Source of the DNA: a virus
Lineage: Duplodnaviria > Caudoviricetes
DNA length: 64,000 bases
Reading direction: 5' to 3' (one strand)
IMG/VR virus record: IMGVR_UViG_3300025084_000012
Coordinates: 15,125 to 79,124 of that record
The notes beneath the pieces are model-generated. The model was not told the origin of the DNA. It searched no databases and was given only the letters and a program-made list of their open reading frames with translations. The first letter of the stretch is position 1. The number at the start of each line of letters is the position of its first letter. Positions 3,384 to 51,621 of the stretch are shown in pieces. The translations under genes were made by a program, and so were the position numbers.

Positions 3384-3889
3384 TGTCCTACAGTGTTGAG
3401 TGCATTAAGTGTAACCTTCCATTTACAAAGAGGTCGATGAAATCTAAGCAAAAGGTTTGTCACGATTGTCTTTACGATAACACATTCACAACCATACAGA
3501 ACGCTCGTTACAATTCTATAAATCAAGAGATGAGTAAGGAAGAGTTACTCGCTAAAATCAACGTCATGGATGAGAAGATGGACACAGTAGCACAAACAAT
3601 TGAGACGCTGGTTAAAGATTCAGTCAAGAAGGAAGTTGATGTCGCATCACTGGAACACGGTGACGCATTCATTGACTTAAAAGCCAGCATCGTTTCTATG
3701 CAAAAGGAGCACGAGGAGAAGATAATGACGCTACTCGCTACAGTGAACTCTCGTATGGTGTCTCTTGAGAAGAGAGTAACCGATAGAGTCACCCTAATCA
3801 GGCAGAAGATTAGAGAACTCAGACATGAGGCGAGGCAACGCAAATGGTCTATCACAGAAGAAGGATGGACTATGACAACTAAATTGTAA
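3380..3889 (+). CDS. Zn-ribbon plus coiled-coil protein
   Basis: N-terminal CIKC...CHDC followed by a heptad-rich helical region. Confidence 0.65.
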   Translation: MMSYSVECIKCNLPFTKRSMKSKQKVCHDCLYDNTFTTIQNARYNSINQEMSKEELLAKINVMDEKMDTVAQTIETLVKDSVKKEVDVASLEHGDAFIDLKASIVSMQKEHEEKIMTLLATVNSRMVSLEKRVTDRVTLIRQKIRELRHEARQRKWSITEEGWTMTTKL

Positions 3890-3911
3890 GTTGATATATA
3901 AAGCAACAGTA
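3888..3911 (+). promoter_or_regulatory. conserved viral promoter motif, copy 2
   Basis: AAGTTGATATATAAAGCAACAGTA, 1 mismatch to consensus, intergenic. Confidence 0.85.
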
Positions 3912-4500: not shown

Positions 4501-4697
4501 AATACCCAACATTGGTTATTCAACTAACGAGTGACTCAGGTGTGCCTATTGACATGCCTAATGACTGGCTTGAAAGTGTCATGCAAATATCGAGTATGCT
4601 TCATAGCAAATACAGATGCGGCATTGATGTCTTGTATGGTGAGGCGACTAAAGAAGGATTCAACATCATAGAAAAAGAGGTGAACAAGAATGATTGA
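4497..4697 (+). CDS. hypothetical protein
   Basis: 66 aa, GTGA-coupled to the upstream ORF. Confidence 0.6.
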   Translation: MKYPTLVIQLTSDSGVPIDMPNDWLESVMQISSMLHSKYRCGIDVLYGEATKEGFNIIEKEVNKND

Positions 4698-4974
4698 CAC
4701 AGACAAATACGAAGGACACACAGAAGGAGAATGGTGGTATGTTGATTTCACTAACTGCCCTAACGGGTCTAAGGACTCATACATTATGAGCAATACTGGA
4801 AAGGTATTTCAGAATCTCACAGGTTCCTTGTTGCCTGACGAATTGCTCATAGCAGACGCACCACTACTGCTCGCAGAAGTCAAGCGGTTGCGACAAGTGG
4901 TTACTGACTTGTTGCTTGAGTTTAACATAGGTTCGTCGTCTTACTGGAGAAGAATAGAGGAGGATTTGAATTGA
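4690..4974 (+). CDS. MIDTDKYEGH paralog 1
   Basis: Shared N-terminal MIDTDKYEGH and IADAPLLL.E..RLR blocks. Confidence 0.8.
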   Translation: MIDTDKYEGHTEGEWWYVDFTNCPNGSKDSYIMSNTGKVFQNLTGSLLPDELLIADAPLLLAEVKRLRQVVTDLLLEFNIGSSSYWRRIEEDLN

Positions 4975-5285
4975 TTGACACAGACAAGTACGAAGGACAT
5001 ACGGAAAGACCGTGGGAGATTCATGGAGAGCGCATCTGTGCTCAAGACGCTTGCGAAGTAGGGAATGTAGGTGGTGAAATTGCGACTCTAAATCCTAAAA
5101 TTGACACTCGTTTTTGGTTGCCTAACTCTCAACTCATAGCAGACGCACCACTTCTCCTTGAAGAAATCAAGCGGTTGCGTGAAGGTATCAAGGAGTTGGC
5201 GGAAAGTTGGACTAACCGAAAAGTTGGAAGACCAAGTGACCTACTTGTACTTGCGGCAAATGAGTTGAAGAGGTTGATTGAATGA
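4971..5285 (+). CDS. MIDTDKYEGH paralog 2
   Basis: Same conserved blocks; TTG start. Confidence 0.8.
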   Translation: MIDTDKYEGHTERPWEIHGERICAQDACEVGNVGGEIATLNPKIDTRFWLPNSQLIADAPLLLEEIKRLREGIKELAESWTNRKVGRPSDLLVLAANELKRLIE

Positions 5286-5560
5286 TTGACACAGACAAAT
5301 ACGAAGGACATAGTGAAGGTGAATGGAAAGTAGGCGCACGAAAAGGTGCTATGACTGTGAGGGATTCTAACGGTGAAGAAATAGCGGCAACCAATTCTTA
5401 TTCAAACGCACGAATCATGGCCGACGCACCACTTCTCCTTGCAGAAGTCGAACGATTGCGTGGAGTCCTCTTGCGAATTATTGATACTGCTAAAGGAAAA
5501 CCATTCATAAGCGGACACATTAATTCAATTGTAGCAGAGGTTTTCAAGGAGTTGATTTGA
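5282..5560 (+). CDS. MIDTDKYEGH paralog 3
   Basis: Same conserved blocks; NARIMADAPLLL. Confidence 0.8.
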   Translation: MIDTDKYEGHSEGEWKVGARKGAMTVRDSNGEEIAATNSYSNARIMADAPLLLAEVERLRGVLLRIIDTAKGKPFISGHINSIVAEVFKELI

Positions 5561-8149: not shown

Positions 8150-8173
8150 AAGTTGATATATAAAGGAACAGTA
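8150..8173 (+). promoter_or_regulatory. conserved viral promoter motif, copy 3
   Basis: Exact AAGTTGATATATAAAGGAACAGTA; ATG 8185 lies 11 nt downstream. Confidence 0.85.
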
Positions 8174-8184
8174 GGATGATATTT

Positions 8185-9135
8185 ATGGAGAACAGCACAG
8201 AACCACAGACCTTGGAGGACATAGCAGGTCAGACTGCCTTTGTCTCCGACGCTATGGGTTGGCGGAATGGTGGTAAGTGGCCTCGTGCTGTTCTCCTCCA
8301 CGGTATGCAAGGCACTGGTAAGTCCACTGCGGCGAAGGTCATGCTCCGTGAGAAGATGGGTGACTACTTTGACCCCATGAACTACATCATTGTCAATGCC
8401 TCAGATGACAGAGGGCTTGACTACATTCGTAACCAACTCAAACAGATGAGTGCGGTCAAGGCTGTAGGCACTGACAGGAGAGGCATCATCGTAGACGAGG
8501 CTGACGGCCTCACCCCTGCTGCTCAAGATGCTCTAAGGGGCATCATGGAAGAGTATGCTGACAATGTTTTCTACATCTTTACATGCAACGAGATTAGCAA
8601 AATCAAACCTGCTATCCGAAGCAGGTGTCTTGTGTATGAGTTCAAGCCTATCAGTCCTGAAGATGGGGCTAAGAGGCTTGTTGATTTATTCAAAGGACAC
8701 TTATCCAACATGGGTGATGATACACTCAGCGCTTGGAGTAACACATTCATGCGACTCATGAAGTTCACTGGTGGTGATATGCGTATGGCTATCGCTATCA
8801 TGGCGAGTCAAGGTGACGCTCCCCTTACTTCTCTACAGAAGAGACTATCCGATGGGGGCAACCCATCACAGGCCGCACTTGCTGCTATCAGTGGTGACTA
8901 CGGCGACATGCGTAAGCAACTCTATACCATGTTTGACAGAGGGCTTTCACTTACCTTCGTCATGCGAACATTCCATGAGAACCTAACCGAGTTCTTTGAG
9001 ATGGATGAAGACAACACATGGACAGTCATGGGTGTGCTGGGAGAGATGATTCCCCACATGTATGAATGGCCTATCGGTTCATATTCCTTTGTTGATTGCC
9101 TTGTGGCACGACTACGAAAGGAGGTATTATCATGA
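8185..9135 (+). CDS. rfcS: replication factor C small subunit (clamp loader)
   Basis: Walker A GMQGTGKS, NASDDRG, Walker B IVDEAD, AQDALR and SRC motif. Confidence 0.93.
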   Translation: MENSTEPQTLEDIAGQTAFVSDAMGWRNGGKWPRAVLLHGMQGTGKSTAAKVMLREKMGDYFDPMNYIIVNASDDRGLDYIRNQLKQMSAVKAVGTDRRGIIVDEADGLTPAAQDALRGIMEEYADNVFYIFTCNEISKIKPAIRSRCLVYEFKPISPEDGAKRLVDLFKGHLSNMGDDTLSAWSNTFMRLMKFTGGDMRMAIAIMASQGDAPLTSLQKRLSDGGNPSQAALAAISGDYGDMRKQLYTMFDRGLSLTFVMRTFHENLTEFFEMDEDNTWTVMGVLGEMIPHMYEWPIGSYSFVDCLVARLRKEVLS

Positions 9136-11486: not shown

Positions 11487-11604
11487 TCAACATGGGGGTT
11501 TGGGGAATAAAAAACGGGACACTTAACTCCTCTCAGGAGCCGAAACCTGAGTGGCCTAAGCGGGGTACTTCTTTCTTCACCTCGCCCCGTTTCCCCCACC
11601 TTGA
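11487..11604. other. GC-rich nested inverted-repeat element (candidate structured RNA, terminator or origin)
   Basis: CTCAGG/CCTGAG, CTTA/TAAG, AAACGGG/CCCGTTT, TGGGGG/CCCCCA and TCAA/TTGA nest into one long hairpin. Confidence 0.55.
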
Positions 11605-11613
11605 GGTGATACT

Positions 11614-12369
11614 ATGACAAAAGTAAACATGAACAGAAAACAGTTGTTGGACTTCCTATCGGAGTTCGGTAAAAACACAGAAGACTTACGTATCAAGTTC
11701 GATGATAAACACATGACAGCATCTGTTGCTTTCATCTCGTACTACTTATCGAAGACGAGAGAAGTAGTAGGAGTTGTGGGAGAAAGTGGTAACCTCGACA
11801 TCACTGAACTGGTCAAGGTTCGACAGTTTCTCAAAGCAGCGAAGGATGATGTGGTGAACATCTCACAGACAGGTTCAGCAAAGACACTGAACATTACATG
11901 TGGGTCATCTAAGATTACTATGCCTACGTCTTCCACAATCATTAGTGCGGCTAAGGCTACACTCTTTGAGAAGTTGATTGAAGAAGCCGAGACAAGTAAG
12001 TGGACAAAGTTCCACTCGTGTGACCTGAACGTATCAGGAACCATCACACTGGATGAGTTGTCTACTGTATCGAAGATGAGAGGTATTCTCAACAGCAGTC
12101 CTATCTTCAAGGTTACAGCCAATGCGAGTGAAAATGAGTTTCTCATATCTTCGGGCAAGAGGCATGAAACCAAGTTGTTCACTACACTTGAGTTGCGTGA
12201 TTCCACTGGTCCAGTTACTGGGAGCGTGAGTTCTACATTCGGTTCATGGCTGATGGATAACATAGCCCTTCTCGGTAAGGGTGAGGCTACCATACACATG
12301 GGTGAAACGACTATCATCGCTCTTGAAAAAGACGAAGACCTACTTGTTATCGTAGACCAAAGAGCGTGA
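11614..12369 (+). CDS. pcn: PCNA-like sliding clamp
   Basis: 251 aa with two similar halves of alternating beta/alpha pattern; lies between RFC and PolB; GAGGTGA RBS. Confidence 0.7.
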   Translation: MTKVNMNRKQLLDFLSEFGKNTEDLRIKFDDKHMTASVAFISYYLSKTREVVGVVGESGNLDITELVKVRQFLKAAKDDVVNISQTGSAKTLNITCGSSKITMPTSSTIISAAKATLFEKLIEEAETSKWTKFHSCDLNVSGTITLDELSTVSKMRGILNSSPIFKVTANASENEFLISSGKRHETKLFTTLELRDSTGPVTGSVSSTFGSWLMDNIALLGKGEATIHMGETTIIALEKDEDLLVIVDQRA

Positions 12370-12373
12370 TTGA

Positions 12374-14782
12374 ATGATTATCGACTGGTACTACCCTGCT
12401 GACTCCGACAACTTCGGACAGCCTAATCTCTACTTACGGACTCGTGACAAGGATGGTGTACTGCATGAAGAGCACATATGGCCTGAAGACAAGAAGTACG
12501 TAAAACCACATTGTTGGATTCCACTAAACACACCTGAGTGGAAACTTAATCGTATGCTCGCTCGATACCCCAGTGCTCGGATTCATCGGAACATTCGTGC
12601 TGCTGGTATTGACAAGAAGACATTGATGAAAGTTGAGGTAGACAGACCTACTGACTTGTGGGACATCAAAGACGAGATGCCTACTTATGAAGCAGACTTG
12701 AATTACCTTGACCAAGTGCTACTGAAACTCTATCCTGAGAAGTTACCTGAGTTCAAGCCACGAGTGTGGTATTTTGATTTGGAGTGGGATGTCAAGGATG
12801 ACTTCACATCCGTCATGGCTATCGTGGACAGTGACCTTGAGAAGCCTGTTGTATTTGCATGGGCTGATGAAGAAAAAACCAATTGTCCTTATCCAATACA
12901 CATCGAAAGCGCAAGATACAGAACAGTGCGTGATGAAGATTACATACTACAAATCCACCCCTCCGAAGCGGAGATGCATGAAGCCTTCATTGATTTCTTA
13001 CACAAGCGTGACCCTGACATTCTCGTAGCCCATGCTCTGATGTGGGCTGACTTACCGCACCTGATGCGTAGACTGAAAGACCCTGACCAACTTTCACCAC
13101 TCGGTCAAGTGATTCGACCATTCAAGGGTAGAGATGGTTACAAGGACACTCAACAACCCATCAAGGGTAGACTGTGCTGGGACTCAGCGGCTCACTGGAA
13201 GAGTGGGAGTGGCTTTGAATCGCTATGGCAAAAGTCAGGACGTGGACAACTACCTAACCGTAAGTTGAATACTATAGCGGAGTTGCTTGAACTCGGTAGT
13301 AAACTGACAGAAGAGATTGAGGGTATGACTGTTCACAATGGTTGGTATGAATACTGGAGTGAGTTCGTAGATTATTGTCTTCTCGATACCACGTTACTGC
13401 GTGACATTGACAAGAAACTCAACGCCATTGATTTCTTCGTTGCTACTCAGCAATTGTGTGGTGTCTCGTGGGCGAGCACACACAAAGTCACTCGATACTT
13501 TAGAGGGCTTGTTGGTAGAAGGACGGATAAGAAAGCCAAGAGTGCTATCAACAATCGACGTGAACAACTCACTGCCGCCCACATTCCTGACCCTATAGCG
13601 GGTCGCCATGAGGGTGTAGCCATTGTGGACTACGCTTCTCTCTATCCTAACATCATTCTCTCCGACAATCTATCCTACGAGACAAAGCGTGAGCAACCTA
13701 CAGAGACTACCAAGACGCTGGGCGATGGCTCACACTGGTGTCAGAAGAAGAAAGGTCTACTCCCTGCTATCGTAGAAGAGATGCTTGAATTGCGTGCTGA
13801 ATACAAGAGACTCATGCATGAGGCTACAGACCCTGATGAGAAACTCGGTTACGACATGATGCAAACAGCGGCGAAGGTTCTCGTTAATGCACTCTACGGT
13901 ATGACTGGGATGAAGTTCCTTCAAGGTATGTGGGTAGACAACGACATAGCAGCCGCTATTACCCACAGAGGGCGTGAGTGTATTCACCATCTACTGGCTG
14001 AGAGTGAGGAGCAAGGTTACAAATCACTCTATGGTCACACGGATTCGGCTTTTATCCAAGTACCCTTTGACGAAGCAATATCACTCGCTGAGCACTTGAC
14101 TGAGACTGCTAAGAACAAACTTGAGTTACCAACAATGGAAGTTGAACTTGAGGCTTACTTCGATTACTGGACTACTGCTCCAGTGAAGAACCGCTACTTT
14201 GGTATCAAGACGTGGCCTGAGAAAAGCAAGGGTGAGATGAAGATTGCTGGTTATGAAATCAAAGCCTCCAGTTCTTCACGTATAACTAAGCGCATTCAAA
14301 AGGTGGCTATGGAAATGATAGGCACTGGTGCTGATGAAACAGCCGTCACAGATGTACTGAGAGAGATAAGTCTCCAAGTCAAGAACGGTGAGATACCGAT
14401 TGAGGACGTGGCTTGCTCGTCTCGATTGACGATGGACTTTAGGGATTACAAGAGCCTACCCGCACCTGCAAAGGCCGCTATGTACTACAACGAACACGTT
14501 GCCACTAACGCCGAAGAGCGATGGAGTAAAGGCGACAGTGTATCATGGATTTATGTCAAGGGTTTCAATGATGATGTCCCTGACTACTACACACTCAAAG
14601 GAGAGCGAGCGAAGGTAAACTTTGTTGCTTTCCGTGATAAAGCAGAGTTGAAGAACTATTCTATAGACTGGGACAAAGTGCTCAGTGTTATGGTTAAATC
14701 TAAACTCATGCGAATCTATGAGAGCCTTGACTGGGCGCTTGATGCTGCTTCGGGAGTGACAATGCCAAAGTCATATTTTTGA
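12374..14782 (+). CDS. polB: family B DNA polymerase with 3'-5' exonuclease domain
   Basis: ExoI YFDLE, ExoIII YCLLD, motif A DYASLYP, motif B Q...K...NALYG, motif C YGHTDS, KNRY. Confidence 0.97.
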   Translation: MIIDWYYPADSDNFGQPNLYLRTRDKDGVLHEEHIWPEDKKYVKPHCWIPLNTPEWKLNRMLARYPSARIHRNIRAAGIDKKTLMKVEVDRPTDLWDIKDEMPTYEADLNYLDQVLLKLYPEKLPEFKPRVWYFDLEWDVKDDFTSVMAIVDSDLEKPVVFAWADEEKTNCPYPIHIESARYRTVRDEDYILQIHPSEAEMHEAFIDFLHKRDPDILVAHALMWADLPHLMRRLKDPDQLSPLGQVIRPFKGRDGYKDTQQPIKGRLCWDSAAHWKSGSGFESLWQKSGRGQLPNRKLNTIAELLELGSKLTEEIEGMTVHNGWYEYWSEFVDYCLLDTTLLRDIDKKLNAIDFFVATQQLCGVSWASTHKVTRYFRGLVGRRTDKKAKSAINNRREQLTAAHIPDPIAGRHEGVAIVDYASLYPNIILSDNLSYETKREQPTETTKTLGDGSHWCQKKKGLLPAIVEEMLELRAEYKRLMHEATDPDEKLGYDMMQTAAKVLVNALYGMTGMKFLQGMWVDNDIAAAITHRGRECIHHLLAESEEQGYKSLYGHTDSAFIQVPFDEAISLAEHLTETAKNKLELPTMEVELEAYFDYWTTAPVKNRYFGIKTWPEKSKGEMKIAGYEIKASSSSRITKRIQKVAMEMIGTGADETAVTDVLREISLQVKNGEIPIEDVACSSRLTMDFRDYKSLPAPAKAAMYYNEHVATNAEERWSKGDSVSWIYVKGFNDDVPDYYTLKGERAKVNFVAFRDKAELKNYSIDWDKVLSVMVKSKLMRIYESLDWALDAASGVTMPKSYF

Positions 14783-14791
14783 GGTGACAAA

Positions 14792-14935
14792 ATGAAAAAG
14801 ACAAGACAAACAACACTGGACGAATACGGACTGACAACTGATGGGCGAAGACAAACCAAACTCACTGAGTTTGGAATGACGTTTGAAGTTGATATAAAAA
14901 GGAACAGTAAAGATGAGGTTGGTGAAGAAGAGTGA
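14792..14935 (+). CDS. 47-aa tandem PIP-box microprotein (not in ORF track)
   Basis: MKKTRQTTLDEYGLTTDGRRQTKLTEFGMTF...; own GAGGTGA RBS; stop overlaps the next GTG. Confidence 0.75.
   Translation: MKKTRQTTLDEYGLTTDGRRQTKLTEFGMTFEVDIKRNSKDEVGEEE
14886..14909 (+). promoter_or_regulatory. conserved viral promoter motif, copy 4
   Basis: AAGTTGATATAAAAAGGAACAGTA, 1 mismatch, inside the microprotein ORF. Confidence 0.8.
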
Positions 14936-15297
14936 CAGAAGAAGAGACTTTCAAAATTAAGTGTGCTAAGATTGCAGGTAAGATTGTGAACCTACTTGCT
15001 GAGAAGAATGCTCAGTATGGTGACAGTGCCTTTGACCCTATCCGCTTCTTCAGCGACCTTCCTCCTGATGCTGGCTTAAGAGTTAGGATTGATGACAAAC
15101 TCAGTAGACTCATGCGTGGAAACGATACAATCGAGTCTGACGTTGATGTGATTGAAGACCTGATTGGTTACTTCATCCTCTTACGCCTGACGATGGATGA
15201 TGAGGAAACAGTTGAGGCATACAAGGACTCAGAACTTAACAAGTTGAAGCCACGTTATCGTTTTCCTCTGCCTAACAAATTTGGTAAGGAGTGGTGA
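14932..15297 (+). CDS. Nmad1/DUF1599-like nucleotide-modification-associated protein
   Basis: KNAQYGDS...RIDDKLSRL...EDLIGY pattern. Confidence 0.7.
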   Translation: MTEEETFKIKCAKIAGKIVNLLAEKNAQYGDSAFDPIRFFSDLPPDAGLRVRIDDKLSRLMRGNDTIESDVDVIEDLIGYFILLRLTMDDEETVEAYKDSELNKLKPRYRFPLPNKFGKEW

Positions 15298-18655: not shown

Positions 18656-18679
18656 AAGTTGATATATAAAGGAACAGTA
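18656..18679 (+). promoter_or_regulatory. conserved viral promoter motif, copy 5
   Basis: Exact consensus; ATG 18692 lies 12 nt downstream. Confidence 0.85.
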
Positions 18680-25832: not shown

Positions 25833-27257
25833 TCACTCACCCCTCTCTGTAAATTTAGCAGTCTTGCTACCACCGACTTTTTCACCAGTAGCAACGCCGA
25901 CCACACCTCTACCCATACCTCTCCCTATGATGAAACCATCGCCTGATACACCGTGTCCAACAATCTCTGTTACGACGACTGAAACAATTTCAACATCGCC
26001 AAACAGAGCCATGTTCTTCTCAAGAATCTGCTCGATGCTATCAACTTGGTCACCAGAATTTTTAGTACCTTGAAGTATACCCTGTAGAACGCCTTCAACG
26101 CCACTGTCTACACTCAGGAATACAAGGTCAGCGACGTTTTGAGAGAATTTATGTCTTACTTCGACTAAGATTTTTCTTTGTCCATTATACTCGATAATCA
26201 TACCGGGTCGCAAGTCCCAACTATTCGGATGACCTGCGCTCGTGAGGTTACCAAGCATGACTGCATTTGCTTTCAGTATGTTACGACCAGTCTCTCTTGC
26301 TTGTTCGTTACTACGAACAGTGAAGTCACCAACAATCTGTGGTTCCTCTAACACCTCACCAGCCCGACCTGACTGTTTTTCTGAGTTGTTTACTTCAGCA
26401 AACGCAGTATCGTTTACAGCCGTTGGTAGACCCTCTACAATTACTCTGTTCGATATGTTTTCAATTGGGTTATTGATTGCTGGGCCAGTACGAGCATAGT
26501 GGTCGATAAATCGACTCTTCTCCTCAAACTGGAATGGGACGTAAAGCAAGTTACCAAACCTGTCAAAGTGGATGACTCGGCCATCATGACGGCTAATGAA
26601 CCGTAGAGCATCAACAAGCGTAATACCATGAAAGTCTACACCAACGAAACTGTTGCTGTGTAGTCTTCTATCAACTTGAGAATTGCTTGGACTCAATGGC
26701 AGTGCGATGTTTACAGACGTAAGAGAATCAGCGATGTCTCTGCTGATGCGTATAGCCAAGTCTGTTGTTCTTAAGCCAGCATCAATTGGTTGTCCGAAGT
26801 GAGCCTGTGTTTGAGAAAAACCCAGTTTACTAAGTGTCTTACCCTTCATGTTTCTTACAGCAAAAGTGGTTCCAGTGCCACTATTAACAACTGAAGATGT
26901 TCGCAGTCTTTCACTATCGACACCCTTACCATAAAGCAGCACTGGTTTGTTTTTATCGCTGTCACTGGTAATGCTTGAACCTAAGTAAACCACAGAGCCT
27001 TCGTAGTTTCGCCCATGCGTGCCTGTGTGTTTTAGGATAACAGAATCCTGTAGTTCTGTCATGGTGTAAGTGTGTGGTGTAGAGACAGCATAGGTGGTGG
27101 TTTTGCGTTGCCTCACCGTGACCTTCTTCTCCAAGTTCTTCTGTGGTGTATACTCACCAAGATGAAGGGCGTTGTCCACAAACTTTGGTTTACGCACCGC
27201 CTTCATCACAACATCCGTGTCGGCTGTTGCTCGCTTGTCCTTGAGTAAACCCATCAT
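25833..27257 (-). CDS. baseplate hub / tail-tip protein
   Basis: ITLVDALRFISRHDGRVIHFDRFGNLLY and DLRPGMII are hub-like; tail-tip position. Confidence 0.6.
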   Translation of the reverse strand: MMGLLKDKRATADTDVVMKAVRKPKFVDNALHLGEYTPQKNLEKKVTVRQRKTTTYAVSTPHTYTMTELQDSVILKHTGTHGRNYEGSVVYLGSSITSDSDKNKPVLLYGKGVDSERLRTSSVVNSGTGTTFAVRNMKGKTLSKLGFSQTQAHFGQPIDAGLRTTDLAIRISRDIADSLTSVNIALPLSPSNSQVDRRLHSNSFVGVDFHGITLVDALRFISRHDGRVIHFDRFGNLLYVPFQFEEKSRFIDHYARTGPAINNPIENISNRVIVEGLPTAVNDTAFAEVNNSEKQSGRAGEVLEEPQIVGDFTVRSNEQARETGRNILKANAVMLGNLTSAGHPNSWDLRPGMIIEYNGQRKILVEVRHKFSQNVADLVFLSVDSGVEGVLQGILQGTKNSGDQVDSIEQILEKNMALFGDVEIVSVVVTEIVGHGVSGDGFIIGRGMGRGVVGVATGEKVGGSKTAKFTERGE

Positions 27258-30200
27258 GCATCACCACTGTGGTCTGATGTATTGAACGATACATCTTCCT
27301 TATGTCCCTTGCTGTGCAACGATTGACTGAATCTTGGTTTGACGGTGTAGTCTTTACTCTCACCAGTTCTTCTTGGAGCATCACTCTTGAAGTGCTGTAA
27401 TGTGTTTTCACTGATGACAAGTCGAGTAACAGTGCTCTTCAGTGTCGTCTTATCAAAGCCAGTAACCTCTGTTCCCGGTAACTTCGGCCCTTTCGATACT
27501 GGCACAGTGTCGCTACTGCTCTCAACAAGATACACTGGTTGGTATGGCGCTGATGTGTTAGGATTGGTAGCACGCATGTATGACCCGCTGCTTGCTCTAC
27601 CGTTTGGAGTTGAGTAGGTAAACATTCCATACTTACCACCAGCAGTAGCAGTGAACGCAGTGCTACCGTTTTGCTTGCTATCAGTGTGCAAAGCCAATGC
27701 TGGTCTGAATACCGCTATGTGTTGGTTGTCGAGGAGTCGTATAGGTCGCAGCATAAACTGCACTGAATCATCAGCCATGTTTGTCTGACTGGCTACTGAA
27801 CTTGTTGTTTGGTATGGGTTGCTTGTCTTTGTACCACTCATACCACTTCGTCCCCAACCTGTATCATCGAATGGACTGGCGAAACTACGAGCCTCCAAGA
27901 TGTAAGTTCCACCCATAGGCTTGAAGTTACTTGTGTGGCTGAATCGCATCACACCACCATGAGGCTGAGCAGCGAAGGACAAGGCTGTCAGGTCGTAGTC
28001 GCCAAGCGTTTGAGAGCCTGACTGCATACCACCATGTAGCACAACTCTCTGACCCACACCTCTGTTAGTGTGTAGACTGTGTGCTTCTGAGTTGATGGCT
28101 ACCATGTTGGCGTTGCTGCCAGTCAAGGATTCTACGGTGTCTCCGTCGATACCAATTCGTGGTGACGAGCGAGAAACAGCATCCTTGTGAACCGATGTCC
28201 CGCTGATGGATTCTACCTTGTCGCTGACTGTTGCTTCAGGTTTGAGTAGTCCGTCCTCATCGACTTCCAACCGAGCACTAATACCTCTGACAATTTCACT
28301 TGGTTGTAGTGCATCGTTTCTTGGTCGAATCAAGCCTTGACCGAATGTAGGTTCAGCAGTGTTGCTTGATAAGACAACACCTGAGTTTTGGTACACTGCA
28401 CTGAGTTCAACCAGTCTGTCCTCATTGAATTGTGTTGGGAATCGTACACCACGTCCGTTACCCATGTCTCCTACTCGTAGTGCGTTGGTAGGAGCAAACA
28501 CATCGACCAACGTGGTGTCTGCATTGTTGTTACCAGTGTTCTTTCTACCACCAAAGCGAGGTATTGTAACCGTTGGAGATGCTAATACTGCACCCGATGA
28601 TGTATCTGAGTCAGCGGCTATTCCCTTGAGATTGAAGATAGGCTTGTTATTGTTCCATATACGGGCGTAAGGTGTTCTACCATTAGTTCTATCATACTCG
28701 TATGCATCTCCAGCATCCCATGATGGATTGATACCAAAACTACGAACAGGCATACGCCTAATATCCTCACCACGAGTGTTACCCCACCAGTCGATGAGAT
28801 AATACGATACAGCATCTTTGTAGAAGTTCTTACCCATACCAGCGGAATCGCCCCACCAATCTCGTATCACAGTGCTGGCATTCTTCAAAGTGCGTAGAGC
28901 GCATCCAAATCCTCTCGTCATTCGTCGTCCATCGCTGTAACGCACCTGCCATTCGTATTTGTCGGCATTCAGCATACCAGCAGCAGTTGTTCCACGCTCA
29001 AGAATACCAACATAGGTAGTCGGTAGGTTGGTACTGCTTTGTGTGCTGTCTCCGCCAGCGTAAAGCCACCCGTTACTTGTTATAGTTTCATACTCAACCA
29101 GTGGCCCTGCTTTGTAACCAACAGCAAGATTGCTTGCACCTGAGTGTGTGGCTTGCTCTTGGAATGCTCGCATACCATAATGACCCCATTGAGGTCTGTT
29201 CCAAGCCTGTCGTAGTCCGAAACGATAACCAAACGGATATGTTCGTATACTGCTAAGTGAAGTAGTGCTCACACCATTAGCAACCGCATAACTACCGTCA
29301 TCATCGTCATCTTTCCAATGTATACCAGCATTATGTGCGTAACTTTGTGGAACGTGCCACGCTGCTGATGACATAGCGTAACCGTCTAATCGACTAATCA
29401 GTGGCCCACCACGACTGCCGCAAGGCCAGTAATTGGTAAGCATGTAAGCCCCACCTTGAGCCGACAAACCACTGATGGAGTTGATGTCTGTACCGCTTAG
29501 AATTTCACCATCACCATCAAGGTATACCTTGTCACCTGCCGCAAGATTACTCTCAAATATCTCAGAGTAAAGAGTGATGTCTGCACCACTAACGCCGTTT
29601 ACTCTACCAAGAACTCGCCCATTAGCAAACAAGACATCTTGGTTGCTCACCCCAGTAACTGTGTCACTCATTGTGATAACGGTAACAGTTGTAGTTGTAA
29701 CCGAACTAACAGTCCCAGCAAGTGCTTTAGGTGGAACAGGTGTCTTCATTTGTAATGTAAGTGGGCCGTGACTTGCTGTATAATTGACATCTTGGTAGTG
29801 AATTGTCTCAAAGTGCTGTGGCATACTGTTGTATGCGGCGTTATTAACGGCTCTGTCTAATGTATGATTGTCACCGTTTGTAATCCAAGTTCGGCTGGCA
29901 TCTGAGTAGAATGTATGAGGCCGACCCAAGTTAGGACTCCAAGCACATAGATATGAGTCAGTTGAGAAAAGACTGTTTGTGTCTCTCGTTCCTGTAAGCA
30001 ACTGACTGAGATTTTTGGTCAAAACACTTTCGTTATCTTTAGTGAAGATGTCGTTTACTGATTTTGTAGAATATGATTTACTCAGTGTTAGTTTTGTGCC
30101 ATCGGCTATGGTAACTCCCGTTGGTAGATGAAACACATCAGGCTCATTCATGGTCGCTGAACTGTGACTCAAGCCTTGCCGAGTTGTATAACTAAACGAT

Positions 30201-33200
30201 ACAGTTTTTCCCGTAGAAGAGTCAATGTATTGCAGTTTTTGTTCGTAATACGGTTTTTCAGGGAACAGAGAAGCGTCATCAACTTGGATAGCAGTCGCTG
30301 AAGAATGCGCTCCGACGACCTTACATGTAGGAGCGAGGCTTACGTTCTCCATAATCTTGGAGTAGATGTCAGGATAGATACTTGGGTAACCAGCCAACGT
30401 CAATTGAGCAGCGACTGCACCATAACTTGCTCGACAGAACTGATAATAGTTGTCGATACGATACAAAGAAAGGTGTCTGAAACCAACAGCCGATGCGTCA
30501 GACGGAGTGCCTTGATGCATAATACTCCACCACGGTATGCTTGTAGTAAAGCCGGGTGTAGCGTCTTTGAACGCTACGTCAGGAGTTGTCGGGTGATATG
30601 GATGACCTCGCCTTGTAAACGAAGGACTTTCCGACCCTTGAACTCCAAGTGGATTATAAAGCAGCATTGGTGGAATGTTAGCCAACTGACTACCGTGGTC
30701 AGGGTCGTGGTCAAGGATGACCTCATTCAAGAATATCTCACAGCCTCTTACGTCAGCCAGCGTAGCCTCAGCAAGAATAAGCGTGACACCACCAATGTTA
30801 GCACCGTCTGTCAAGGTTGAGTGTCGTTCTTCGTCGTACTTGATACCGATGACGAGACTCACTTGCTGACTGGTAAGAACAGCAGTGTTGTTTGAAGGAG
30901 TGGAAACATCGGGTAGAGTAGTTGCTGAAGAGTTGTTCAAGTGGAATCCAGTTACCTGTTGCGAGCGTAAGTTTGGCTGAATGACGATTTGATACGCACC
31001 AACTTCGGCAGGGTCAGGGAAGTGGTTAGCCTGAGTATAGTTACCACCAGCCTCAAGGACAATCGAGTGACCACCAGCCTTGTTCATATCTCCAGCAGTA
31101 CCTTTTGACGCAAGTATACCGTAGCCGTCATACTTGATTTTTGTCTCAAACATTAGCGTAAATGCACCACCGTGAATGTCGCTTGGGCCTGACGGATTGG
31201 CTGTGAGTGAACCTACTCTCAGTGCTGGGTTGAGTGGGAATAACCTGTCTTTAACTGCCGTAGGAACAGAGGTCTGATTGTTTGTTGTACCGTCTACCTC
31301 GACCAAGTTGTCAGCCAGTGTCGTATAATCTTCGTCACGCACTAACGCTAAATGGTCGCTGTTCGCTTTTTCGTATAATCCTTGATAGGCTGGATGCGCC
31401 CAATGACCCGGCATCATTGGCATGGTAGCATTGACAAAGTGATGACCCATACGAGGTATAGGCATTGGAGTGAGTTGTGGTCTACTGTATCTTGAGTGAA
31501 TAGTTGTTAGTGCGTTACCAGTAAAGTATTCTGTATGAGCCATGTCAGGACTGTTACCGCTTACCTCGGCATGGTCACGCAGTCGGCGTGCAGCAAATAT
31601 ACGAGCACTACCAGCAGGGACGTAGTATGACGGTGTGATGGTCAATGCACCAACAGCAAAATTATCAGCCATAAATTGAGTAAAATCAATGTCACCAACA
31701 AGGTCGTCAAACACATCTGAACTTATTGACTCATACGAAGCAATAACGCTTTCACCTGTTGCATTGCTGATTCGTATGAATCGTCGGTTATCGGCTACTT
31801 CTTGTGTTCCAAAGCCAGTAGAGAATATGTTTTCGTTGATAGTAGCGCTCGCTGTAATTGAGGTCGAAGTGTAGGAATCTACTGTAAGGGCTTGATTAAC
31901 CACACCAGCGGAGTGAGTGTAAGTTGTCGGGAACTTTTCAGTGTGGCTGTGACCCATCTTTGTTATATGGAAATACAGTGCTCTGTCTTGCTGCTCATAG
32001 GAACTGCGTAGTGTGTTGTTACCAGTCGCCGTCACCCAGCCGTCACGAGTAGACTCAGGGAAGTTCTCGTCTTGTGAGATGTGCTCCCATCCTACTTCGT
32101 TCATAGTTGGCCCTTTTCTTGGAGATTTGACCACGTTGTCAAACAGATGACCAAGATGTGTTGCTCCCAAATCAGGGTGAATCATACCACCGTCACCAAA
32201 TGTTTCTGTTTGATATGCTTGAATTGGGTCGAATCCACTGCGAATAAGAATGTTGCCGGGAATAGATTCGGGGTCAGGCAATTGAATTTCAAAGTTCGGA
32301 GGTATGCCGCTGTTTGCAGGGACAGGCTGTAGACCACTTGCTAATCTTGTCGATGCAGGTTTATATGCTCTGATGACGATACCCAACGGCGAACCACCTT
32401 CAAGCGTATGCACTTGTCCTGTGTCATCTACAACACTAATATCTTCAAACTGTATTTCTTCGTTTGGTATCTCAAGTACGTTACCGATAGCAATAGGGTG
32501 CTCTTTCGCTAACGTAGGGTGCGCTATCTCTTGTGCCTGTAGAACTGGCATCATAGCCGAGTTTGTTGTCTCAAAAGAAAATCGTATGTTACCATACAAC
32601 TTCTCACCCATCTGATGAGCAGTTCCAGCAGCGCCTCCTACTACTGCATCTTTAACACGAGTAATCCACGGCACTGCTCCTAAACCACGAGCATTGGATG
32701 TCGGCATAGTGACTGTCCCACCATCCATTCGTTTCCATACAACATGCTCTGTACTGAAGTTTTTGTGAGGACTGCGCTTTAATACATCGTAAGCATTGAC
32801 ATCACCAGCCCAAAAGATACCTGATTGAGTAGCATGAGTGGTTGAGGTCATCTGCGTCGATGGGTTGGAATTTGTAATAAAATCAGTAGCAAGGTTTCTG
32901 TTTGCTATACCCGCTGCTTCCTTATGATTTAGAATACCTACGTTCTTGTCAATGTCGAAGAACAAATCACCAGTTTCAGCAAGACACGGCTCAGCGTTTG
33001 ACAAAGATGTGTCTGCTGAAATTGAGCCGTGTAAATGTATCTGAGCGTTGAATGGGCTACTATCTAACACTCCGCTTGCAGTGTAGTCACTAATGGTAGG
33101 AGGCGCTGTGTTATCGGCAATCAAAGCCTCTACGTTAGGCCCAGCGTTAGCAGGTGCTACAAAGCGGTCACTGTGGTGGAATCGTTCGTCCCATTGGGTA

Positions 33201-36200
33201 GTGCCTCCAGCCAACAAGTAATCACCTGTAGAGGTGTAGTTGTCTCTGTCCTTTCTTGCCACCAAACTAAGTTCGCCCTCGTGGGCTACAACCAACAAAG
33301 CACGAGAGTAAGTGCCTTGAGCATGAATCAACTCTTTCTGTATCTCAGGCATGTCTCGCATAACTGGTGGGTTGTTAAACTGAGCACCGTCAGCCCAGCC
33401 TACAACATATGTACCAAACGCTATTGGGTCATCAACGCCGTAAGATACAGAGTCAGCCTCACTATCACCATCACTTGGGAAGTTAGTAAGACTACGACCC
33501 GGTATATCTGTTGGTGGCATACTCTCAGGAGAGTTAGGTAGAGGTGTTGTGTGAGGTAGATGACCAAGTACGTTAGCACAAGATGAAGAGCCGCCATACG
33601 GTGAAAATCCAAGCATAGAGTGCCAAGCCCCAAGACCAGCGGAGAAACCACTGTCTACTGATAATGTGTTTAGATACGAATATCGCTCTCCATGCCATCC
33701 TACTGCTCCGACTGGCTTTGTTCTGTCTATTGCATCAGCGATACCGCTAAAGTGCGTTGCCCCAATACCATAAGTTGTAAAGCGACTACTTGCTGAGTTA
33801 TCCACCCCAATAGTTCCACTCTTTGACCATATCCATACTGTTGTTCCAACAGTGGGATTACCAGTTGTGTTTACAGCAGGGTGTGGGAGCGTTACACCAC
33901 CTACATTTGAACCACTGGTGCTATTGAAAGCCGTTGAAGTATTTGCATAAATGCGCCAAGCCTCTCCGTCTTCAAAGGCTTTTAGACCTGTAAGTTTGTT
34001 ATTTGATAAGTAGAATCGACAAAACAAATCTGTACCATCTCTATAGAACGCACGACTGTGATAAGAAGCCCACGCTGATGATTTGACTGAACTACTTACA
34101 GCACCACCGTAGTCGTGATTAGCCTCTGTTCGCAACCAACCTGACGCTGGAACACGATTAGCATTTGCCTGTTCATCTACACCAGCACCAGCCAAAACTA
34201 CGAGGTCAATGAAGCAATCACCACTCTTCAAATTTGATGCACTTGATGCCGTGTTACCAAGTGTATTATGAATATAGGTAATAGTCACACCCGAGTTTGA
34301 AACATTAGGGGCGGGGTTCACTGTAACAGTGCCTCCCACTGAATCAACAGAAGCAACTACGCTGTTGGCTTGTATACCAGTTCCACTTATGGATTGACCT
34401 GCTTGTATTGTAGCGGGGAATGTTCCAGTAACGGCTATGGCTGCAACACCGCTGGTAACATTTGCAGTGAATGTAACGGGTGCTGTAACGGTTCTTACCA
34501 TAGGAGTGGTGCTTACCACGTTGTTTGAGTAACCATGACCAGCAACATCAGTGGCTCCAGTAACCGTACCAACTGGTGTTGCTCCGCCGTAAACGTCGTT
34601 TCGGATATTTGTTGTTCTCGCTTCTAACCAACCGTATCGGTCTTGACGAGTAGAGTTGCCCATTGATGGCATGAACGTACCACCAATAGCCTTGAGAGCA
34701 CCTTTACCGGGAAACGTATTGATAGCAGCGCCCAGTAAGCAAGCCAACTCTTCTCCGTTCTGACAACGTGTAGCGTCTACAACAATGTATTCGTGGTCTA
34801 CATCGCCATGAACTAATGTTTCTGCTGCAAAATCAGGTGATGAACTGTTATCGTTAGAGTAAAGCATTCTTGTAGCCAAAGTTCCAGCGACTCTAAACGC
34901 AGTCTTGTTAATTTGAGTGGCTCCAGTAGCAAGCGCAACTCTTAGGCTATCGCTTTCTCTTGGTGGGTTCATAGTAATTTGATTATCCATCCAAGAACCA
35001 CCGGGATGGTTGCCATTATCCATGTGCCAACACAAATCAGAGTTCTTGACCATACCTCCGCCATAGAACATAGCGTGTCTACTGGGTTGAACGACAGCGT
35101 ATGCTTTTGCTACGTCATCTGTGAAATTGGAAGCAGTGCTGTAGTGTTCAAAGGCGTTGGTAGTGAGCGAGTTACCGTAGTTTCTACCATTCTCAGGTCG
35201 CTCTCGCAAAAATACGGTATCGGGTATACCAACTGGTGACTCCCAGTTTAACACCTGTCTGTAATGGAATCGGTGCTTAGCCAACTGTGTAGCCGCACGC
35301 TCAGGCATATATTCACCTGTACTATTTTGAATGTGATTTGGTAGGAATGGTCTACTGTTTGTCATATTAGGAACTCTTGACCAAGTGTTACCAGTGCTTA
35401 CAGCGTGACCCGGATGAGGCTCAAAGGTATTTATTGGGCTGGTTACTTCTTGTGTTAGTGGGAATGCTTGTCCCGGCCCGAAAATGATGTAGGTTGTTTT
35501 GTTTTCTACACCGTCACGATGGTCGTTATAGCGAGCCGTTGGATGTGCGAAGCGCAACACCATAGGAGATGGCACTTGCATATGGACACCAGCAGCATAT
35601 GGAGCAAGGTTAGGATGTGTTGAACCTACACCAGCCCATGCTCCTCGCTTTAGGTCTTGAGAAAGAATGTTGTCTTTGTTGTAAACTGGTGGGTTGATGC
35701 TACCATGATGTTGCTTTAACAGTGCAGTTGCTGGGAAGAAAGCCATGATAGCGTTGCAGTCAAGCGTAGAAAAAGAGGAGAGAACTTCATTAGCATTCTG
35801 AATACCAGCAGAACCTGTTGGCCCGTTAGCATACGGATGTGTATTATGCTCCGAGTAATCGTTCTTAGTCCCGTCATTGATGTCTATTGTAGCACCACTA
35901 AAGCCACCACCAAAGTAGAGTGGTACATAGTTATCAGGCCCGTCACGAGCACCAGTAAAGTGAATGATTGGTAAGGAATGCACGCTACCAAGAGAGCGTT
36001 TACCAGCAAACAAATATGCTCTTTTGTCAGCGTATTTTTGAATAACAAGTGTTTCGGCTGGACTCGGAATTGCTGAAGGCCATTTTGAACTTCGTAAGTT
36101 TTCGTCAGATAATTGGCTGAATGCCTTTTCAGAAACAAATCCACCACTGTTTACATTTTGACCCTCTGTAACCGCTGTTTCGATACCGTAACTAATAGAT

Positions 36201-39200
36201 GTTTTATTTCCAAAAGAATCTACTCTTGTGTAATCATGAGTTTGCCCGTTTTCATAGTGATTAACAGATGCTTCTTGACCTGCTGGTTTAGCAAAATGCC
36301 ACATTTCATTATCGCTGTGTAAAGCCATTATAGAAGCAGAGTGAACATTAGTCATTTTTAGCGTTGGATTATCAAGATTTGGTAGAATCAAATCACCACT
36401 TGATTCGATAAAGTTTTCACCAATCAAATTCTTGCGCCATGTGTTGGTGTTAATAGGATTGTTTTGTGAGTCTACAATGTTTGGCGTAGCGGTGTTCGCA
36501 TTATGACCTCTACCCTTTGTTGTAATTTGTATGATTGTCGAAGGAATGTAACCACAGTTTATGCTACGACCTTTAGCGATTAGACCATCACCTATAGGTC
36601 TTGTACCATCTCCTCCTACTGTAACTCCGTCACCGTTTAGTTTTAGACTCTCGACTTCACCATATTCAATATGACTGGCTCTGATACCAACGTCTTGTGA
36701 AAGATTTGCTGTGAAGAAGTTCGATATAGACTCGATGTTACCTTTTGTATTGTAGGCTTTGATGCTGATTGATTCTTCTGTAATTCCCCATTCACCAAAG
36801 GTGCGACCATCAGCGGCGTACATGTCGGTGCAATCAAATGTAGTTCCCTCGTTAGGGTCTGATAAATTGATAGCAGCGGCAGTTACGGCTGCCATTAATT
36901 CATCTGTAACAAGTGTAGTCCAATTAGCGACTGGAGTTATCAAAGCGGAAATAGCATCTGTTTCTTCACCAACAACATAGTTACCGATAGTGAGTTTTGG
37001 TGCAGTGCTACTGTGAGTGTGAATTTTATGCTGAGAACTGTATGTGTCACCAGTTACACCGTGGAATACATGTGTCCCAGTTCTACCAGCATTGTTGTCT
37101 CTTGTACGGTGAGTATAGGAAAACATGTTACCCCAGTTACCGCTAAGTGAGTTAGAGAACGTAAACGTCGCATTTGTACCACCTTGACCGACAACAGTAA
37201 TTGTTTCGCCGTTCGTATAACTACCTTCACCAAGAGAAGTAATCACAACAGCAGTAACTTCTCCACTACCGTTTGTGTCGATACTTAGTGTCATCCCGCT
37301 ACCATCCCCAGTCCCTGTAGCCACTGCTCCTGATAGACCAGCACCATATCCTGAACCAGCGCTTAGTGAACTTACTTCGCCTATATCGTTGTAAGGGTCA
37401 GATAAGTGAATAACACCGTTTTCAACAGGGAATCCCATGTAACCCAGCAAGTCGTGGTGAGGGCAATCATCGTATGGGGCATAGAGTGTAACTGTAATTG
37501 TCTTATCTGTTGTATTGTAAACAACATCTGTGTTGTAAGAAGCGTTGGGAGCAGGTGCTCCTCGCCACAAGTTACCTCTCCAATTTGCAAGCGCTGCGTT
37601 ATCAGGTATGGCTGGGAATCGACCTGTTGGGTCACTTATCCCATGCATGTGCTTACCGATGGTAAATCCACCTTGCGAGCAGTCTTTGTGATTAAAGTAG
37701 ACGACAATTTCATTTTCTAACGTCTTTGGTAGAAGCGTATTATCTAAAGCGAATTTTTCTCCTATGTTCTTGTAGATGTAGCGTATACCATGCTCTACTC
37801 CTCTGTGGTCTTGCAGTCGCATAGCATACATAGATGAATCACCTATACTGTCAGGAAATACCTGAGCAGTAGGAATGTGACCAGTATAAGAAGTAGCAGG
37901 GTCTGTGTTCGATACTTTTGTGAGTTGGCCGTAATCATTAGCAAGTTTATCATTACCCTTTCTACCAAAGCCCCACTGACCAGCATCGGGTGCAAAGCCG
38001 GGAATACCAGCAGAAACAAGGCCACCGAAGTTTATTCGTGCTACAGCGTTTGTTCCTACACGTAGACCCTCTGTGAAAGAAGTGTTGAAGCCTTCAACTT
38101 CAAGCGACTCTGTGTTTAGTGTGTTGTGATTCTGACCGCTACCGCTGTGTGCTGATACGGCACGCAGTCTTGGTGTAGTAGTCTCATCGTGATTATTGGA
38201 AAATTCACCTTTTGACGCAACTACTTGCATTGATTCATCAGGCTGTGTGTACTGTCTTAAAGAAGTAATTGGAGCAAAGGGTCTACCGTGTTTATTAAGC
38301 GGCATCGGTGCTGGGTGCATGTTTTCTCCACTCAGTTCATCAGGCAAACACCAAAATGTTCTGAACCGACCACCGTGACCAATCATAAATTCAGGCTTGT
38401 AAGGAACTTGCCCTTTGCTGTTGTCGAGCCACACCGCAAAGTTACGACCAGTAGCACCGGGAACTGTACTGTGAATAATGACTGAAAATCCTTCTTCGTT
38501 ACCATCTATGTCTCTAACAACTCGACCAAGATGAGCACGAACGTAACCCATGTGTGTTCCTTTATCGTGCGATTCAAACGCTTTATCTTCATCCCACCAT
38601 ACAACAGGGTCGTGAGTAGAACCAGTTGTAGCAAAATCAGCCTCACCAGCAATCTTTACGGGGTATTGTTTGTTTGTGTTGTTACTGTGTGTACGCCCTT
38701 TCTTTGCAGCAGCCTGATTTATCATACGCACAACTTCAGTAGCCGCTGCTTCAACGCTCGTGATACCGTCTCTAACTGCAACTTCACCCAAGTCGATGGT
38801 CATTCTTCTCGTAAAGTCCATCTGAGTCCACTGAGGTAAATGCTGTAGTCTTGTTTCACTCATGTTAGACAGGTCAAGAGCCTCTGAACGAACGCCCTTG
38901 AGGGCAAGGAATGCTGGAATAACACGAGTCCCATCGGGTGTATCAAACAGTGTAGACGTTTCTTCGTTTCTTCTGTTCATGAAGAGTGTGAAACTACCTT
39001 TTCCATCACCGCTTACATTGGCAGTGGCTAATGGTAGAATGTGGAGGCTTCGGTCAGAGATAAAGATGGTATCGCCTTCTTCATAGGAAGTGTCTCCTTG
39101 TCTGTTTATGACAGCAGTAACGACTGCTGCTCCTGAGATAGTAACATCGACGGTCATACCATGACCTTGACCGTTTGTAGTTGTCTTTACGTTGTAGAAT

Positions 39201-51174: not shown

Positions 51175-51621
51175 TCAAGGCACTAACTCCGCAAAGATAA
51201 CTACTTCTATCTGAAAGGTCATCCGAAATAAAACCTTTGACCTATCAGACAAGTCGGTTCGGGTCTTGTAAACCATGCGGTCAAAGTTTACACCGTCTCC
51301 TTTTCTTACTGCGTGAATCAATCTTCGTACTTCGTTCTCCATCAATTGTAGATGCTTACGCCCTCTTGCTGTACGAGCATCTACCGTGATGTTTAGACGA
51401 GTTGTGACAAAATCATAGAGTAATTCGGGGGCTTCTTCATTGTGAGCCGTCTCATAACATAAGATGTAATCGTGGCGGGATAAATCAATTCTTTTACCTC
51501 TTTCAGCACCGACTGTCGCTATGTCAGCGATGACTGGTTTGATGTTACCAGTGTTCGCACGATTCCAGTCTTCTAATGTAGAGATAACCATATCAAGAGA
51601 TTCAGTAAATGTAGCAACCAT
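51175..51621 (-). CDS. tail terminator/completion protein
   Basis: 148 aa before the tube gene, with beta-alpha-beta pattern (RLNITVDAR...FRMTFQIEV). Confidence 0.6.
   Translation of the reverse strand: MVATFTESLDMVISTLEDWNRANTGNIKPVIADIATVGAERGKRIDLSRHDYILCYETAHNEEAPELLYDFVTTRLNITVDARTARGRKHLQLMENEVRRLIHAVRKGDGVNFDRMVYKTRTDLSDRSKVLFRMTFQIEVVIFAELVP

Follow-up and report, generated by a model that had tools for sequence, protein, structure and literature searches.

A short open reading frame (ORF) of 47 codons lies immediately downstream of the gene for a family B DNA polymerase (PolB) in a 64,000-nucleotide stretch of DNA ('the window') taken from a 79 kb viral record, IMGVR_UViG_3300025084_000012. 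The ORF encodes a microprotein that stands alone, is accessory to the virus and resembles the PCNA-interacting protein ('PIP') boxes of the presumed archaeal host, as comparison with related viruses and with host genomes shows. We assign a probability of about one half to the reading that this microprotein is a free PIP-box ligand of the host PCNA, and that it would act there as a competitive decoy for the host's own replication and repair proteins. The elements of the gene, all on the + strand, are as follows.

14792-14935, + strand: microprotein gene (P0001), 47 amino acids (aa), beginning 9 nt past the PolB stop codon and in the PolB frame
14781-14787, + strand: GAGGTGA ribosome-binding site of the microprotein, 4 nt before its ATG and overlapping the PolB stop codon
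14804-14830, + strand: PIP-like motif 1, RQTTLDEYG (residues 5-13)
14846-14887, + strand: PIP-like motif 2, RRQTKLTEFG, plus its extension MTFE (residues 19-32; the motif alone is residues 19-28, 14846-14875)

A first-pass annotation of this DNA had described two Q-T-x-L-x-E-[FY]-G motifs in the ORF, a GAGGTGA element of its own with the spacing of the clamp gene, and a reading frame shared with PolB, and all three descriptions are correct. The clamp gene has its GAGGTGA at 11603-11609 and its ATG at 11614, which is an identical layout, and the frame runs from PolB into the ORF across TGA-GGT-GAC-AAA-ATG, so that translation through the stop codon would read ...SYF*GDKM.... A strict form of the motif, [KR]?Q[TSAK][TSK][LI]xx[FYW], has three matches when the 64 kb are translated in all six frames, and two of them lie within this one ORF.

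The status of the ORF as a gene was examined in 80 loci that were fetched by way of their PolB genes, 73 of them with an intact PolB 3' end. An ORF of 25-69 aa, positioned 1-11 nt past the PolB stop codon and carrying one or two copies of [KR]-Q-T-[TK]-L-x-E-[FYW]-G, is found in 27 of the 73; a profile search located it also in L070, where PolB is split. PolB identity to the window among the loci that carry the ORF extends from 93% down to 43%. Each of the PolB-adjacent copies has its own ATG, preceded in most by a GGTGA-type site (4-6 nt before the ATG) that overlaps the PolB terminus; three loci that appear to be exceptions (L032-L034) reflect a start-codon artefact, in which the script took an upstream ATG at -47 and the real start is probably a codon other than ATG. 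Across 30 distinct motif DNAs the Gln at position 1 is invariant (30/30) and is written CAA in 17 and CAG in 13; elsewhere in the motif six codons are in use for Leu and all four for Thr. Pairwise ratios of nonsynonymous to synonymous substitution (dN/dS) among homologues are 0.06-0.4, and third-position differences predominate.

A profile search of 5.8 billion proteins returned 103 homologous clusters (25-111 aa), all of them unnamed or 'hypothetical', and homologues in JGI, TARA and NCBI data are likewise annotated as hypothetical proteins; Pfam and PHROGs yielded zero matches for the microprotein. Contigs from RNA libraries of three studies, belonging to relatives at 90-97% identity, cover the ORF, and one contains the PolB 3' end together with the entire ORF; with DNA carry-over possible, these contigs are weak support for transcription, and speak for presence rather than for level, ends or translation. 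The codon comparisons show that the gene is real and that its product is under selection at the level of the protein. The earlier description of an independently initiated, conserved microprotein is upheld, and the PIP-box-like motif is its sole conserved content.

The PIP motif was first defined in p21/CDKN1A (PMC4929162) and is commonly written QxxhxxAA, with a hydrophobic residue (Leu, Ile or Met) at position 4 and aromatic residues at positions 7 and 8 (Warbrick 1998, as cited in PMC4929162). An archaeal consensus PIP peptide, KTTQSTLDSFFK, has been crystallised on the PCNA of A. fulgidus (PDB 1RXM; PMC4929162). In 30 distinct instances of the viral motif, position 4 is L (26) or I (4) and position 7 is F (14), W (11) or Y (5), in agreement with that definition; position 8 departs from it, being G in 19 of the 30 and M, I, L or S in the others. 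Structure prediction with AlphaFold2 (AF2) gives the microprotein no fold (predicted template modelling score 0.22) and only two one-turn helices, at residues 9-12 and 24-27, which coincide with the segment from position 4 to position 7 in each motif; disorder broken by a one-turn helix over these positions is what would be expected of a PIP box. By its sequence the viral motif can be called a PIP box, one that agrees with QxxhxxA(a) and differs little from the KTTQSTLDSFFK consensus. It shares with the PIP boxes of archaeal clamp clients (FEN1, RNase HII, RFC-L and PolB; PDB 1RXM) a Q-[ST]-T-L-[DE]-x-aromatic core, a disordered setting and a predicted helix over positions 4-7, and differs from them in having no enzyme attached, in forming a whole protein, in being usually duplicated, in carrying Gly at position 8 with a G-hydrophobic-x-F extension, and in its viral origin. 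The conserved unit in homologues, Q-T-x-L-x-E-[FWY]-G-[FM]-x-F-[ETD], is longer than the motif noted in the first-pass annotation.

The comparison with the host was made in 41 genomes of Poseidoniales, which is the presumed host order. FEN1 was parsed at 31 loci, giving 29 C-termini; 27 of the 29 end in Q-[TSPR]-[ST]-L-[FL]-x-F (QTSLFSF, for example), and in the remaining two the Q is replaced by K or R. Approximately 28 of 29 parsed RNase HII genes encode Q-x-x-L-[DEF]-[DE]-[WF] or Q-x-T-L-F at or near the C-terminus, with tails such as QSSLDEW, QSSLDDW and QSTLEDW. The PIP boxes of host FEN1, and many of those of host RNase HII, likewise stop at position 7, and the missing second aromatic looks like a local archaeal variant of the PIP box. 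To judge from these tails, the viral motif falls within the repertoire of the host, the absent second aromatic included. In the replication arm of the window, none of the ORFs of at least 80 aa has a near-terminal Q..L..F (the sole near-terminal match belongs to a minus-strand ORF, 51193-51213), and no terminal docking motif shared among the window's replication proteins is evident. Because the motif matches host FEN1 and RNase HII tails and has no such counterpart among the viral replication-arm proteins, host PCNA would be its most likely target.

Two elements of the following gene block overlap the 3' end of the ORF, and they bear on how much of the microprotein is functional.

14886-14912, + strand: promoter-like TATA element of the next gene block, inside microprotein codons 32-41
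14921-14925, + strand: GGTGA ribosome-binding site of the downstream gene, which begins with GTG at 14932; this codon and the stop codon of the microprotein overlap (GTGA)

A 24-nt TATA-containing repeat occurs in five + strand copies (489-512, 3888-3911, 8150-8173, 14886-14909 and 18656-18679), always ahead of blocks of genes, and these promoter-like repeats make up the direct-repeat families D2 and D3. Where the repeat overlaps the microprotein gene, most members of the clade conserve the DNA even at third codon positions, which indicates that the constraint on the VDIK...VGEEE tail acts on the DNA; residues 33-47, the acidic tail, owe their sequence for the most part to the promoter and ribosome-binding site of the gene that follows. 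Since the last 15 codons overlap these two elements, the functional core of the microprotein approximates to residues 1-32. In more distant clades the ORF ends straight after the motif, and the shortest homologues (25-33 aa) consist of one or two motifs alone. The proposal that the peptide is a bivalent ligand was set aside, since only one motif is present in 7 of the 21 distinct peptides. Motif starts in most two-motif forms are just 13-15 residues apart, which we estimate would not span the distance between two pockets of the same ring; bivalency on a single ring is unlikely, and it is more plausible that duplication of the motif adds avidity.

The + arm of the window holds a replication module, which contains in order an RFC-like loader, two unknown genes, a 251-aa clamp, PolB, the microprotein ORF, a phrog_1485 protein, a PD-(D/E)XK exonuclease and a primase-like protein. 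The features that concern the microprotein are these.

8150-8173, + strand: promoter-like repeat copy that heads the replicase run (RFC-like gene, two unknown genes, clamp, PolB, microprotein)
8176-9135, + strand: RFC small-subunit-like clamp-loader gene (Pfam AAA and DNA_pol3_delta2; phrog_168 clamp loader, E 7.5e-40)
11614-12369, + strand: divergent sliding clamp of PCNA fold, 251 aa (AF2 and Foldseek)
12374-14782, + strand: family B DNA polymerase (PolB), 802 aa (PF00136, E 1.4e-44; phrog_262, E 1.6e-73), with the stop codon TGA at 14780-14782
14932-15297, + strand: downstream gene, 121 aa, phrog_1485, function unknown

The sequence of the viral clamp has no match in Pfam or among PDB sequences. 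Its AF2 model has a two-domain clamp fold at high confidence (predicted local distance difference test score 92.5), and the best Foldseek matches of that model are archaeal PCNAs (E 1e-12, TM score 0.65-0.70, 11-15% identity). Residues 110-127 of the clamp (window 11941-11994) are modelled by AF2 as an 18-residue helix, where PCNA has the last strand of domain 1 and the interdomain connector loop, and on account of this helix the surface that binds partners may differ from that of PCNA.

The nearest relatives of the window's PolB are marine IMG/VR records of 100-107 kb. As in viruses of the order Magrovirales ('magroviruses'), the genome supplies its own PolB, clamp, RFC-like loader and primase, all within one arm, and the opposite arm holds structural genes of Caudoviricetes type. 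The gene set of the window agrees with that of published magroviruses, for which a link with Poseidoniales, previously called Marine Group II, has been described (PMC5434244, PMC10768690). Two further observations concern other parts of the same DNA. At 4690-5560 three small paralogous genes follow one another in tandem (94, 104 and 92 aa), each beginning M/L-I-D-T-D-K-Y-E-G-H, with a DNA period of approximately 285 nt; and the structural arm contains a single ORF of 6059 aa (27254-45433, - strand), very large for an archaeal tailed virus.

The distribution of the microprotein differs from that of the replication genes beside it. Every clade has the clamp and PolB, whereas a profile of the peptide finds no match in two relatives that retain both genes (G042, 100% complete, and G043, 98%), from which it follows that the peptide is accessory. 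On the PolB tree the PolB-adjacent peptide appears in three clades, and at least three gains or losses are needed to account for it. In other magroviruses, a two-motif peptide of 33 aa is encoded near the ligase gene instead of next to PolB.

The slot behind PolB is not always empty where the peptide is missing. In the largest peptide-less PolB clade (L035-L080; for example L045:6401-6643 and L053:6365-6607) it is filled by a coiled-coil-like ORF of 70-100 aa, with a conserved C-terminus, ...ELQEELQRKFPELY.INKIDAPTKVG, and this ORF may be an alternative PolB-associated factor. Two loci with PolBs of 68% identity (L011:6367-6486 and L071:6367-6486) have in the same slot a 39-aa ORF without the PIP motif, which starts with G-F-W-D-R-L-F and ends in an acidic ...VEEE, as the microprotein does.

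The motif is found in longer proteins as well. In the family P0116-P0120 (L129:5001-5435, L130:5001-5435), which belongs to a sister lineage of magroviruses, two PIP-like motifs stand at the N-terminus of a 144-aa protein, in which a hydrophobic segment ends in a lipobox-like L-A-G-C; with this layout the membrane-anchored motifs would face the cytoplasm, where they might sequester host PCNA. The family P0105-P0115 (L132:5001-5459, L138:5244-5621, L139:3461-3838) comprises proteins of 125-152 aa with one N-terminal motif and an unknown domain of approximately 100 aa. Its genes lie on cellular archaeal contigs, beside genes for thermosome, CTP synthase and QRPTase, always approximately 300 nt from the end of the contig and followed by a 49-aa ORF, and the family possibly lies at the boundary of an island that is mobile or variable. 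A single metagenomic sequence (P0072) has a relative of the small downstream gene of L009 and L013 fused behind two motifs, on a 2.9-kb contig on which an indel artefact is possible.

The course of events that we favour begins with a transcription unit which the microprotein would share with the clamp loader, the clamp and PolB, its start being coupled to the PolB stop. The disordered residues 1-32 would present two tandem archaeal-type PIP boxes (Q1, L4 and aromatic 7), each with its short G-hydrophobic-x-F extension, and each motif would form a one-turn helix on docking into the hydrophobic pocket of a clamp of the PCNA type. The peptide would then compete with host polymerases, FEN1 and RNase HII for the host PCNA, while the virus would rely for replication on a divergent clamp of its own and on a PolB without a PIP box. 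The low identity of the viral clamp to archaeal PCNAs and the PolBs without PIP-like tails fit a viral replisome that is insulated from the host. We infer the binding to PCNA, the choice of the host protein over the viral clamp and the inhibitory outcome; a free ligand of host PCNA is favoured because the peptide has no conserved second module, because complete relatives do without it, and because it mimics the PIP boxes of the host.

Several observations weigh against that reading. Position 8 of the motif is Gly and not aromatic, and position 5, which is F or L in host FEN1, is D, E or T in the virus. DNA encoding R-Q-T-T-L-[DE]-E-[FY]-G was sought in 185,579 species genomes and gave 16 matches against approximately 17 expected (our own estimate), only one of them in Poseidoniales. 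The strict motif is thus nearly missing from the reference genomes of the host order, and the peptide is a family-level fit to host PIP boxes rather than an exact copy of one. The fusions to a membrane-anchored protein, to a coiled coil and to a 100-aa domain on cellular contigs look like the work of a recruitment tag, not of an inhibitor. In addition, the tight coupling to PolB and the neighbouring viral clamp fit a role on that clamp equally well. The only matches from the genome scan that look meaningful are in a Poseidoniales metagenome-assembled genome (L089), in a small ORF on a contig binned with Maricaulis (L096), and at the C-termini of two ORFs of Nitrososphaerota (L095 and L097). 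The last of these (L097:1843-3477, - strand) is a 545-aa ORF in a metagenome-assembled genome that ends in R-Q-T-T-F-E-E-F-G and reads as subunit B of topoisomerase VI by its motifs alone; the ending suggests a PIP-like tail. Topoisomerase VI is not known as a classical client of PCNA.

Binding to the viral clamp is the alternative that we take most seriously, although we consider it rather improbable: the peptide might regulate or plug that clamp, or might, as an adaptor, help a PIP-less PolB to use it. Its position as the last gene of the run from RFC-like loader through clamp to PolB, with translation coupled to PolB, would suit such a role, as would the lack of a canonical PIP box in PolB; and P0072, in which two motifs are joined to a small viral protein encoded after PolB, gives the impression of a clamp tag, even if that case is a single sequence on a short contig with a possible indel artefact. 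An adaptor, however, would be expected to hold PolB by a second conserved module, and none exists, the forms of 25-33 aa being motif alone. The peptide is missing from complete relatives that share this clamp and PolB, and the gene of other magroviruses that lies near ligase is not next to PolB. The modelled helix at residues 110-127 of the viral clamp is also unlike the connector loop of PCNA with which the flanks of PIP boxes pair. A co-fold of three copies of the viral clamp with the peptide (scores 0.04 and 0.01, no controls) speaks neither for nor against binding.

The C-terminus of PolB bears on the same question. The first-pass annotation had regarded PolB as lacking a clamp-binding tail, which is accurate insofar as no Q..L..F motif occurs in the last 40 residues of any of the 73 related PolBs or of the PolB of the window. 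It needs qualifying insofar as nearly all of the 73 end in a conserved aromatic P-x-x-Y-[WF] or Y-G-W-W. This conserved aromatic terminus (window 14750-14779), which further weakens the case for an adaptor on the viral clamp, might itself be the tail by which PolB docks on that clamp.

It is unlikely, in our estimate, that the motif is a linear docking motif for some other host receptor and that its likeness to a PIP box is superficial. Such a reading would account for a conserved unit that exceeds the PIP box (Q-T-x-L-x-E-aromatic-G-hydrophobic-x-F, with Gly at position 8), for the motif that precedes a transmembrane or lipobox segment in P0116-P0120, and for the motif at the end of the topoisomerase VI subunit B-like ORF of Nitrososphaerota. 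Against it, the most conserved positions are Q1, L4 and aromatic 7, which coincide with the PIP boxes of the host order, and the one-turn helices are predicted exactly on the segment from position 4 to position 7. In p21, the residues that follow the PIP box on its C-terminal side pair with the connector loop of PCNA, and given that pairing the extension is compatible with a PIP box.

Two explanations remain, and both are very improbable. In the first, the ORF would have no function as a peptide and would be translated only to hand ribosomes on from PolB to the gene behind it, as a spacer; its very short length, a stop codon that overlaps the next start (GTGA) and a 3' third constrained at the DNA level by the promoter-like element would allow this, but its amino acid motif is held across PolB identities of 43-93%, in differing frames and through heavy synonymous turnover, the next gene has a promoter-like element and a ribosome-binding site of its own, and the codon variation and dN/dS speak in disfavour of a spacer.

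Similarly slight is the probability that read-through of the UGA codon (or frameshifting, in other clades) adds the peptide to PolB as a clamp-binding tail, the model put forward in the first-pass annotation. The window and its closest relatives (L001-L004, L008) do have the ORF in the PolB frame with no further stop codon intervening. When 28 PolB-adjacent copies (the 27 loci and the window) were parsed for frame, however, only six were found in the PolB frame, all in the sub-clade of the window; the other 22 are out of frame, at offsets of 1, 2, 4, 5, 10 and 11 nt, so that all three frame relations occur. A frame that relatives do not keep is the outcome which the first-pass annotation had named as refuting read-through. 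The stop codon itself varies between TGA and TAA: L008 is in frame and yet has TAA, as does L007, and TGA is in any case a common stop codon across the window. Every copy has separate signals for initiation, in the form of its own ATG and, in most, a GGTGA-type ribosome-binding site. The motif is fused to none of the 73 PolBs, and a search for longer forms (8000 candidates scored; weak evidence) found no motif protein of PolB length. Independent initiation explains every clade, while read-through would need a separate recoding event in each, and on these alignments the UGA read-through model, and with it the proposed tail for PolB, is rejected.

Among known systems, one that is comparable to a free ligand of host PCNA is TIP, the Thermococcales inhibitor of PCNA, a protein of 64 aa (PDB 5DA7) that blocks the stimulation of PolB and FEN1 by PCNA in vitro (PMC4929162, PMC6204406). 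TIP is chromosomally encoded, restricted to Thermococcales, and breaks the PCNA trimer (PMC4929162, PMC6204406). Like the microprotein it is a small protein of the archaeal world with an N-terminal PIP-like motif, and three relatives (L005, L007 and L010) have a TIP-like layout, with approximately 17 residues behind the motif in a spacing that looks amphipathic by eye. The microprotein of the window differs in having no amphipathic helix, its second motif running directly into the promoter-encoded tail, and nothing suggests that the viral peptide breaks trimers by the mechanism of TIP. A profile built from 19 of the peptides and compared with all PDB chains (E up to 10) found no TIP chain. The best match in that comparison, a fimbrial construct at E 0.22, was dismissed as chance.

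The C-terminal peptide of p21, a competitive inhibitor of replication, has basic residues before the Gln, a Q-T-x-[LM]-T-[DE]-F core and Tyr at position 8. The microprotein seems to resemble it as a free-standing PIP box of the high-affinity style, with basic residues and a similar core, and differs from it in that p21 is eukaryotic and has a single motif within a larger regulatory protein. Small proteins of the Staphylococcus phages Twort and G1 reportedly inhibit the bacterial beta clamp and so stop replication of the host; here the analogy is one of concept only, because those proteins act in bacteria, are unrelated in sequence and are not simple mimics of a motif. By analogy, the best reading is that the microprotein would be TIP-like or p21-peptide-like in function while belonging to neither family.

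In the surface ocean few viruses are more abundant than magroviruses, and, to our knowledge, neither they nor their hosts have been cultured. The gene described here is unmentioned in the literature on magroviruses and on PIP boxes of archaeal viruses that we searched; new in this analysis are the comparison with host PIP boxes, the overlap with a promoter, the accessory distribution, the fusion forms and the frame statistics that argue against read-through. A stand-alone PIP peptide offers a testable handle on this biology, being of a length that can be synthesised, and Poseidoniales PCNA can be produced as a recombinant protein. If the peptide does act as proposed, it would give archaea their first example of a PCNA decoy encoded by a virus, and no smaller natural inhibitor of PCNA would be known to us. 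We suggest tentatively, and at somewhat less than even odds, a broader picture in which magroviruses assemble a replisome orthogonal to that of the host and release a flood of a minimal host-PIP mimic, which would jam the host PCNA and shut off host replication and repair without harm to replication of the virus. A blocked host PCNA and a spared viral clamp would explain why the viral replisome is nearly complete and so highly divergent, and would make the microprotein a natural minimal clamp inhibitor.

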